Shown piece after piece: positions 11,259-11,336 of a stretch of DNA of 15,890 nt. Position numbers and translations under genes: made by a program. The notes beneath the pieces were generated by a model. It saw only the letters and a list, made by a program, of their open reading frames with translations. It was not told the DNA's origin and did not search any database. The stretch is from IMG/VR virus record IMGVR_UViG_2700989168_000009; one strand, given 5' to 3'. The number at the start of each line of letters is the position of its first letter. Within the stretch, counting starts at the first letter, position 1. The stretch comes from a virus (Duplodnaviria; Heunggongvirae; Uroviricota; Caudoviricetes).

Positions 11259-11336
11259 TGAGGCTGTATGACGGGGTGGGGGGCGTTTTCAGGACAAACC
11301 CGACCCCGCCTACCTGGATGATATCGCCGTGAAGCA
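11259..11336 (+). other. Intergenic region upstream of terS with a G-rich/C-rich dyad; candidate cos/packaging recognition region
   Basis: CGGGGTGGGG (about 11273-11282) can pair with CCCGACCCCG (about 11300-11309) in 9 of 10 positions. Position between HNH and terS corresponds to the cos location in HK97-like phages. Confidence 0.3.

Follow-up and report, generated by a model that had tools for sequence, protein, structure and literature searches.

The window, by which we mean the whole stretch of 15,890 nucleotides analysed here, starts with an integrase gene (1-1230; PF00589 and PF13356) and further encodes a D5-type primase (3767-5515, Pfam match), a major capsid protein with HK97 fold (6859..8016, plus strand, Pfam match), an S78 prohead protease and a portal protein (both recognised by Pfam); phoQ lies on the opposite strand. 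The capsid gene has a premature stop: the codon TGG is changed to TGA at 7684-7686 (W276*). An island of E. coli that is collinear with the window runs from int to terL, is located between roxA and phoQ and has no tail or lysis genes. With this island the window shares an integrase and a PICI-type replication module at its left end, and Pfam matches together with the annotation of the collinear island show a head and packaging module of its own (capsid, protease, portal, connectors, hnh, terS, terL) that lacks tail and lysis genes. This is the layout described for the capsid-forming PICI (cf-PICI) EcCIEDL933 in the available text of bioRxiv 10.1101/2022.09.08.507074.

The island of E. coli AR_0013, collinear in other respects, contains nothing that matches window positions 2073-3425 and 6083-6572, indicating that the regulatory and accessory modules are mosaic. 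Many small indels are present between the right end of the island and phoQ (13920-14430), both in comparison to E. coli (L095; 17 gap openings) and to S. flexneri SFBU1023 (L096; 30 gap openings over the longer stretch 11405-15888); these could be real variation or errors of a draft assembly.

The packaging genes are all on the plus strand. The hnh gene (10594..11092; PF01844) encodes a homologue of HK97 gp74, is annotated as HNH endonuclease in the E. coli relative and is split by a scaffold gap (10866-10915). Its stop codon is overlapped by a small ORF of 60 amino acids (11076..11258), which is a hypothetical protein in the relative (L001 1919-2101), is also found in Klebsiella elements and gave no match in a Pfam search. 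On its left, the intergenic region is actually bounded by the TGA of this small ORF (11256-11258). On the other side of this region is an ORF with a match to the family of P27-type small terminases (PF05119): it is a 5'-truncated terS that extends from codon 10 to the stop codon (11311..11693) and is broken by a scaffold gap (11356-11404). It is followed by an intact terL (11677..13338; PF03354 and PF20441), encoding a homologue of HK97 gp2 of 553 amino acids. The closest E. coli islands are 99.3% identical to the window over positions 10600-11900, are present in 515 of 5426 complete genomes and have the annotated gene order portal, head closure, head-tail connector, HNH, 60-aa hypothetical, terS, terL.

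The original prediction regarded the 78 bp between the small ORF and terS (11259-11336) as an intergenic region. This does not hold: the interval consists of 52 nucleotides of true spacer fused to codon 10 of terS, and bases 11311-11336 are coding, namely for terS codons 10-18 (YLDDIAVKQ). Intact relatives have an intergenic region of 122 bp and an ATG start, and this ATG is missing in the window. In the E. coli relative (99.3% identity) the sequence reads ...AACCCGACCCCGCC, then 97 extra bases (GGGCACCGAACGCCTCCTCAAATTTTTATGCACGGGAATTTTTTGAAAAATAATCTGACGAAAAATAAGCATGGCAAGACCACCGAAAGCCCCCGCC), then TACCTGGATGAT...; in the window these 97 bp (L001 2154-2250) are lost, in comparison to each E. 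coli relative that was read, at position 11310..11311, as defined by the alignment, creating the junction CCCGACCCCGCC|TACCTGGATGA. The 97-bp segment is bordered on both sides by the 7-nucleotide repeat CCCCGCC. It starts 6 nucleotides before the predicted bottom-strand nick and includes both predicted nick sites of a cos (GGGCAC|CGAACGCCTC|CTCAAATTTTT), an A-tract box (GCACGGGAATTTTTTGAAAAATAAT), the ribosome-binding region and the terS ATG with codons 1-9 (MARPPKAPA). Upstream of the junction, the window retains a conserved G-run box (GGGGTGGGGGGCGTTTTCAGGAC, 11273..11295), which is the sole conserved block of the cos region left, and the first 15 nucleotides (11296..11310, by alignment to L001) of a 32-nucleotide spacer that separates the G-run box from the nick site; this spacer fragment ends in the CCCCGCC repeat (11304-11310) at which the deletion occurred.

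The predictions of nick sites and boxes are derived from intact relatives, with cos regions gathered from IMG/VR, GenBank phage records and metagenomes. All 89 unique enterobacterial variants have a common layout, which can still be recognised in two Pasteurella elements. In order, it consists of the G-run box (GGGGTGGGGGnnGTTTTCAGGAC), a spacer, the motif ACCGnnCGCCyCCTCAAATTTTT, the block GCACGGnAATTTTTTGAAAATAA and terS. The G-run box is invariant in the 89 variants, recognisable in the Pasteurella elements and unique in the window, with 0 occurrences expected by chance. The distance between CAGGAC and TCAAATTTTT is 32 nucleotides in 45 of 46 unique versions from IMG/VR and in 55 of 56 metagenome copies. 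Despite this frozen length, the central ~14 nucleotides of the spacer (L001 2135-2166 and the matching positions in the 89 variants) are hypervariable, with 32 versions; the spacer may determine specificity, or spacing alone may count at this site. No motif resembling the cos core was found elsewhere in the window, even with three mismatches allowed.

Evidence for the position of the cut comes from three assemblies that are in permuted, packaged order (terS first, hnh and the small ORF last) and that all break within the intergenic region between the small ORF and terS. The first is LR881103.1 (16.5 kb), which ends with ..TTTTCAGGAC / ...GGTTTTCAGGAC, restarts 22 nucleotides before terS and is without 69 nucleotides that are present in integrated copies. 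This record is named "Escherichia phage vB_KppS-Ant" and its source is given as "induced prophage" (induced lysate), but it is a cf-PICI rather than a phage, with the order terS, terL ... int ... capsid, protease, portal, hnh; one of its genes is annotated as tape measure protein. The second is PQ569648.1, of which the last 15.9 kb are a cf-PICI that extends from terS to 3 nucleotides before the stop codon of the small ORF, with a loss of about 130 nucleotides at the intergenic break. PQ569648.1 ("Klebsiella phage P12620-1", 106.5 kb, of which 88000-106503 were examined) looks chimeric: a linear cf-PICI is joined to unrelated DNA at terS ATG+1.

The third assembly, IMG/VR contig 3300022664_000095 (15,518 bp, order terS...hnh), provides both termini at base resolution and is the one contig that does so. 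It starts with CTCAAATTTTTACGCACGGTGATTTTTTTG (first bases CTCAAATTTTT), has the ATG of terS at position 61 and ends with ...TTTTCAGGACAAAACCCAAGCCGCAAGGCAC (..GGCAC); its start was reached with a Klebsiella TerS protein. In integrated copies exactly 10 nucleotides, a count that relies on the fixed length of the spacer, lie between the end and the start of this contig: they read CACCCGCCCC in those integrated copies that are closest, and CGAACGCCTC in copies of the E. coli type. A contig of an E. coli-type draft genome ends in ..GGGCACC, 1 nucleotide beyond the predicted position. End-repair removes 3' overhangs, while 5' overhangs are filled in and thus duplicated; the 10 nucleotides are missing rather than duplicated, which fits a 3' overhang of the HK97 type. 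We infer that the contig ends are physical termini.

Searches for further termini found none: 85 metagenome matches and about 200 further IMG/VR matches to the cos blocks are all internal to contigs, and in the first IMG/VR pass with the E. coli TerS, 0 of 80 loci began near terS. The 1.6-kb lysate node OR845787.1 (coverage 3.4) was discarded as evidence, as it spans the region intact and says nothing on ends. A metagenome contig of cf-PICI size, ERZ1023299.94 (15,632 bp, coverage 454), also has the cos blocks internally and may represent an induced satellite that was replicating or circular.

Phage HK97 allowed the nick positions to be predicted before the start of contig 3300022664_000095 was known. 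Its cos junction, as defined by the ends of the GenBank record, is ...AATGAC|CGCCGCCAAA|GTTTGAATTT. In a MAFFT alignment between the cf-PICI family and HK97 cos there are no gaps in this part; the C of CTCAAATTTTT is aligned with HK97 position +1, and GGCAC|C coincides with the HK97 boundary -11/-10. The similarity at the DNA level is modest (z of about 3.8 in comparison to shuffled sequences, with the best of 500 shuffles scoring slightly higher). HK97 cos has a 10-nucleotide 3' overhang, and the binding site of its TerS, from +15 to +29, falls on an A-tract (PMC11331095); positions T16 and G21 of that paper fit the numbering of the GenBank record. Cleavage by the HK97 TerL gp2 is stimulated by the HNH protein gp74. 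The A-tract box of the cf-PICIs would, by analogy of position, be the TerS site. The terL product of the window has 27% identity to HK97 gp2 over 506 amino acids (E 2e-47) and the hnh product has 39% identity to gp74 (E 3e-19); the cf-PICI TerS (PF05119) showed neither sequence similarity to HK97 gp1 nor a match among solved structures.

Could the contig ends be accidents of assembly, caused for instance by low coverage or by k-mer problems at homopolymers, with the true cut elsewhere in the intergenic region or with packaging by a headful mechanism? The region is rich in homopolymers (a G run and T runs) that break assemblies, both ends are taken from a single contig and the two GenBank records lose 69 and about 130 nucleotides, not 10. 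Nevertheless, we regard this as improbable: the gap in the third assembly is exactly the 10 nucleotides of the HK97 overhang (PMC11331095), both its ends lie where the ungapped alignment to HK97 had placed them beforehand, all three assemblies are in permuted packaged order and the available text of preprint 10.1101/2025.02.11.637232 reports that packaged cf-PICI DNA forms concatemers via cohesive ends. The claim that cos adjoins the junction between hnh and terS holds for the family, as the three packaged-order assemblies break there, one of them with a 10-nucleotide gap, but it fails for the window itself, where the cos core is deleted.

The feature that had drawn attention to the interval is a dyad of a G run and a C run (11272..11308). 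It is indeed there, 3' of the stop codon of the small ORF and 5' of the PF05119 ORF: CGGGGTGGGG (11272-11281) and CCCGACCCCG (11299-11308) are complementary at 9 of 10 bases and enclose a loop of 17 nucleotides. As a structure it was rejected. When folded as DNA, the 78-mer has a z-score of +0.44 (133 of 200 shuffles fold equally well or better) and the intact 122-mer one of -0.40, no better than shuffles; the 15.9-kb window contains 17 inverted repeats of comparable quality, compared with about 7 in shuffled sequences. At the aligned columns, 9 of 10 pairs are kept in the E. coli clade only, while the other clades keep 5, 4 or 2 of 10, and among the 89 unique variants there is no compensatory change or covariation, with not one pair having a second base-pair type. 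The 5' arm lies in the G-run box and is invariant in sequence, the 3' arm is part of the hypervariable spacer: the dyad is a chance pairing of the G-run box with the variable spacer as it is in one clade. Lacking conservation and covariation, it does not qualify as the cleavage or recognition element it had been proposed to be. A short inner stem within the spacer was discarded too, since it is barely longer than in shuffled sequences (3.4 versus 2.7 bp) and shifts in register. Mutual information is high between columns 5 and 44 of the cos alignment, but adjacent columns do not share this signal, which is distributed by clade; we treat it as phylogenetic linkage.

This bears directly on the reading of the 78-bp interval as a functional cos or packaging-initiation site, with the dyad as the element recognised for the packaging of the island's own DNA. 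The place between hnh/small ORF and terS is the right one for the family and the 5' arm of the dyad coincides with a box that is truly conserved. However, the termini deduced from the packaged-order assemblies are 22-33 nucleotides downstream of the G-run box and thus in the very segment that is deleted here, the dyad fails in conservation, covariation and folding alike, terS has lost its start and nine codons, and the capsid gene is broken, making a functional site highly unlikely. For the same reasons we do not uphold the idea of an island that packages only its own DNA: the predicted nick sites, the A-tract box and the terS start are deleted, the window has no other cos-core motif, and the capsid gene is broken.

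A hairpin with the G run might instead act at the RNA level, as terminator, attenuator or in translational coupling between the small ORF and terS, and not as a DNA packaging signal. Its place is in the transcribed sequence between two genes of a long operon, and a G+C-rich stem is possible in one clade. We consider such a role very improbable too. The 3' arm of the dyad is followed by CCGGGCACC in the relatives and by CTACCTGG in the window, with no T run in either; no promoter or terminator was found on the coding strand of the intact region, no site in this region has the G+C-rich stem-loop with T run of an intrinsic terminator, and the 4.3-kb intact region had no match in Rfam 15 at E-values up to 1. 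The z-scores of folding given above (+0.44 and -0.40) do not support a structure either, and there is no covariation: other clades have an unrelated sequence in place of the 3' arm, next to an unchanged 5' arm. The fixed 32-nucleotide distance to the nick, together with the presence of a G run at the same distance in HK97, better fits a role at the DNA level.

The window has four runs of N (8579-8631, 10393-10511, 10866-10915 and 11356-11404). They were considered as deliberate masks and this was ruled out, because they are insertions relative to two references: in comparison to these references the runs are inserted or do not have the right length, the sequences on their two sides are mutually overlapping or contain poly-G, and base errors are found adjacent to them. 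Such runs create false ORF boundaries, among them the split of hnh and the start of terS at GTG 11337. The latter is out of frame with terS codons 10-18 and is an artefact: the scaffold gap of 49 N (11356-11404) is not true to length, like the other three, and shifts the frame. The first start codon in frame with terS is GTG 11329. The protein of 103 amino acids that begins here is identical to an S. flexneri protein (AAN42762.1, AAP16651.1, ABF03368.1, ADA73543.1) and was seen on at least 1000 contigs; a truncated TerS might still be made from this codon.

Among 488 complete E. coli genomes, 40 records were sampled evenly down the ranking, and all 40 either carry the approximately 97 extra bases or stop matching at window position 11310. 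The junction was found once in 185,579 species-representative genomes, namely in S. flexneri SFBU1023 (CP182556.1), an independent complete assembly without N runs that is 99.5-100% identical to the window over the packaging genes (8015-11355). The presence of the same junction in an independent, gap-free genome and of the truncated TerS on at least 1000 contigs indicates that the deletion is real. That the deletion is an artefact of a poor draft and that the real genome has an intact cos and terS, as the four scaffold gaps with their poly-G or duplicated flanks and adjacent base errors and the position of the junction in a 440-nucleotide piece between two such gaps might suggest, has next to no probability given the same junction in the gap-free CP182556.1 and the exact 103-aa TerS in four S. 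flexneri accessions and on at least 1000 contigs. Since both the junction and the exact truncated TerS are found in S. flexneri, the window is a S. flexneri genome sequence and the deletion is a trait of this lineage: the window is the Shigella flexneri copy of an EcCIEDL933-like cf-PICI. The most likely origin of the deletion is slippage or recombination involving both CCCCGCC repeats. The broken capsid gene is of the same kind: the 275-aa fragment that results from W276* is identical to an S. flexneri protein and is present on at least 1000 contigs, indicating a lineage-wide pseudogene rather than a sequencing error.

Taken together, the interval is, with high confidence, a deletion scar in the cos region of a decayed EcCIEDL933-like cf-PICI of S. 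flexneri. An intact cos of this family would consist of four parts: (i) the conserved G-run box GGGGTGGGGGnnGTTTTCAGGAC, (ii) the spacer of fixed length (32 nucleotides from CAGGAC to TCAAATTTTT) with its hypervariable middle, (iii) the staggered nicks ..GGCAC|CGAACGCCTC|CTCAAATTTTT.., which would leave a 10-nucleotide 3' overhang, and (iv) from +12 to +36 the block GCACGGnAATTTTTTGAAAATAA with the T/A-tract, at the position where TerS binds in HK97, with the ATG of terS at about +55. The nicks would presumably be introduced by TerL and the HNH protein, as in HK97; both the cutting enzymes and the proteins that would bind the A-tract and G-run boxes are presumptive. The predicted ends of the packaged cf-PICI are 5'-CTCAAATTTTTATGCACGG at the left and ...CCGCCGGGCAC with the 3' single strand CGAACGCCTC at the right. 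In S. flexneri, the 97-bp deletion between the CCCCGCC repeats would have removed parts iii and iv together with the ribosome-binding region and nine codons of terS, leaving as a remnant the G-run box and 15 nucleotides of spacer, in frame with terS codon 10.

The loss of the nick sites, a TerS without its N-terminus and the nonsense codon in the capsid gene argue that cleavage and packaging of the island by its own machinery are very probably lost. Capsid formation and self-packaging, the remaining features of a cf-PICI, are predicted from the DNA sequence to be absent (W276*; deletion of the cos core and the 5' end of terS). In principle the island could be packaged in trans, for example by generalized or lateral transduction. 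It should be annotated as a defective cf-PICI remnant and not as a mobile satellite. Gene decay is well known in Shigella, and the loss of the cos core, the terS start and the capsid gene fits this pattern; nothing in these results is surprising to specialists. For the family, the analysis provides a cos prediction that can be tested at the base level, with nicks at GGGCAC|CGAACGCCTC|CTCAAATTTTT and a 10-nucleotide 3' overhang; no base-level cos map was found in the available texts of the cf-PICI literature. Such a map can be of use for cos-plasmid or cosmid tools based on cf-PICIs and for spotting physical ends in virome data.

Because a G run stands at a similar distance from the nick of HK97, we keep the G-run box as a possible real sub-site of cos. 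It is conceivable, if rather doubtful, that it is an undescribed third sub-site of the HK97-type cos that would serve as a docking site for HNH or TerL or as a cosQ-like termination signal; in HK97 as well as in the cf-PICIs of Enterobacteriaceae and Pasteurellaceae it would be kept three helical turns before the nick. The adjoining spacer might modulate the specificity of packaging where satellites and helper phages reside together. If this were true, the S. flexneri scar would keep an orphan half-site.

One of the closest known systems is EcCIEDL933, the prototype cf-PICI. It has the same module order as the window (int, primase, capsid, protease, portal, connectors, hnh, terS, terL) and EDL933 matches the region of the interval with 98.8% identity on either side of the deletion; in contrast to EcCIEDL933, the window has the 97-bp deletion in cos/terS and the nonsense codon in the capsid gene. 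The position of EcCIEDL933's own cos is not given in the available text of bioRxiv 10.1101/2022.09.08.507074. SaPIbov5 and HNH-dependent staphylococcal phages are comparable by description: the satellite is packaged via a cos that needs TerS, TerL and HNH (Quiles-Puchalt et al. 2014, as cited in the available text of bioRxiv 10.1101/2022.09.08.507074), but satellites of the SaPIbov5 type carry the cos of the helper and use the helper's terminase, whereas cf-PICIs carry their own terminase, HNH protein and cos.

The cf-PICI cos also has a three-part layout similar to that of phage lambda, with the G-run box on the cosQ side, although lambda differs in having 5' overhangs of 12 nucleotides, no HNH protein, and unrelated sequences and TerS. 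Lambda cos is organised as cosQ-cosN-cosB: one element precedes the nick site, and another, to which terminase binds, follows it and adjoins the small terminase gene. A cosQ-like role of the G-run box, suggested by this analogy, would be speculation.

HK97 and the cf-PICIs share several features. In both, cos is located between hnh and terS (the window keeps the upstream flank of this site) and TerL and HNH are homologous, to gp2 and gp74, respectively. Between the ACCG located just before the bottom-strand nick and the T/A-tract, the alignment of the two cos sequences is free of gaps; AC|CG is found at the bottom-strand nick, followed by a stagger of 10 nucleotides, which in the relatives is supported by the contig ends and of which the bases are deleted in the window. 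A T/A-tract lies ~23-30 nucleotides past the cut, present in the relatives at the position bound by HK97 TerS and absent from the window, and the G run ends 32 nucleotides before the bottom-strand nick in HK97 and 33-34 nucleotides before it in cf-PICIs. Differences are found in TerS, which in cf-PICIs belongs to PF05119 and is dissimilar to HK97 gp1, in the start of terS (+55 to +61 in cf-PICIs versus +50 in HK97) and in the sequence between hnh and the end, which in HK97 amounts to a further 319 bp and in cf-PICIs to only the 60-aa ORF and ~60 nucleotides. The layout of the nick site is thus common to cf-PICIs and HK97 despite the different TerS family. Unlike HK97, the window has lost the cos core: its site is of a known kind, the HK97-type cos of a cf-PICI, here present as a deletion remnant.
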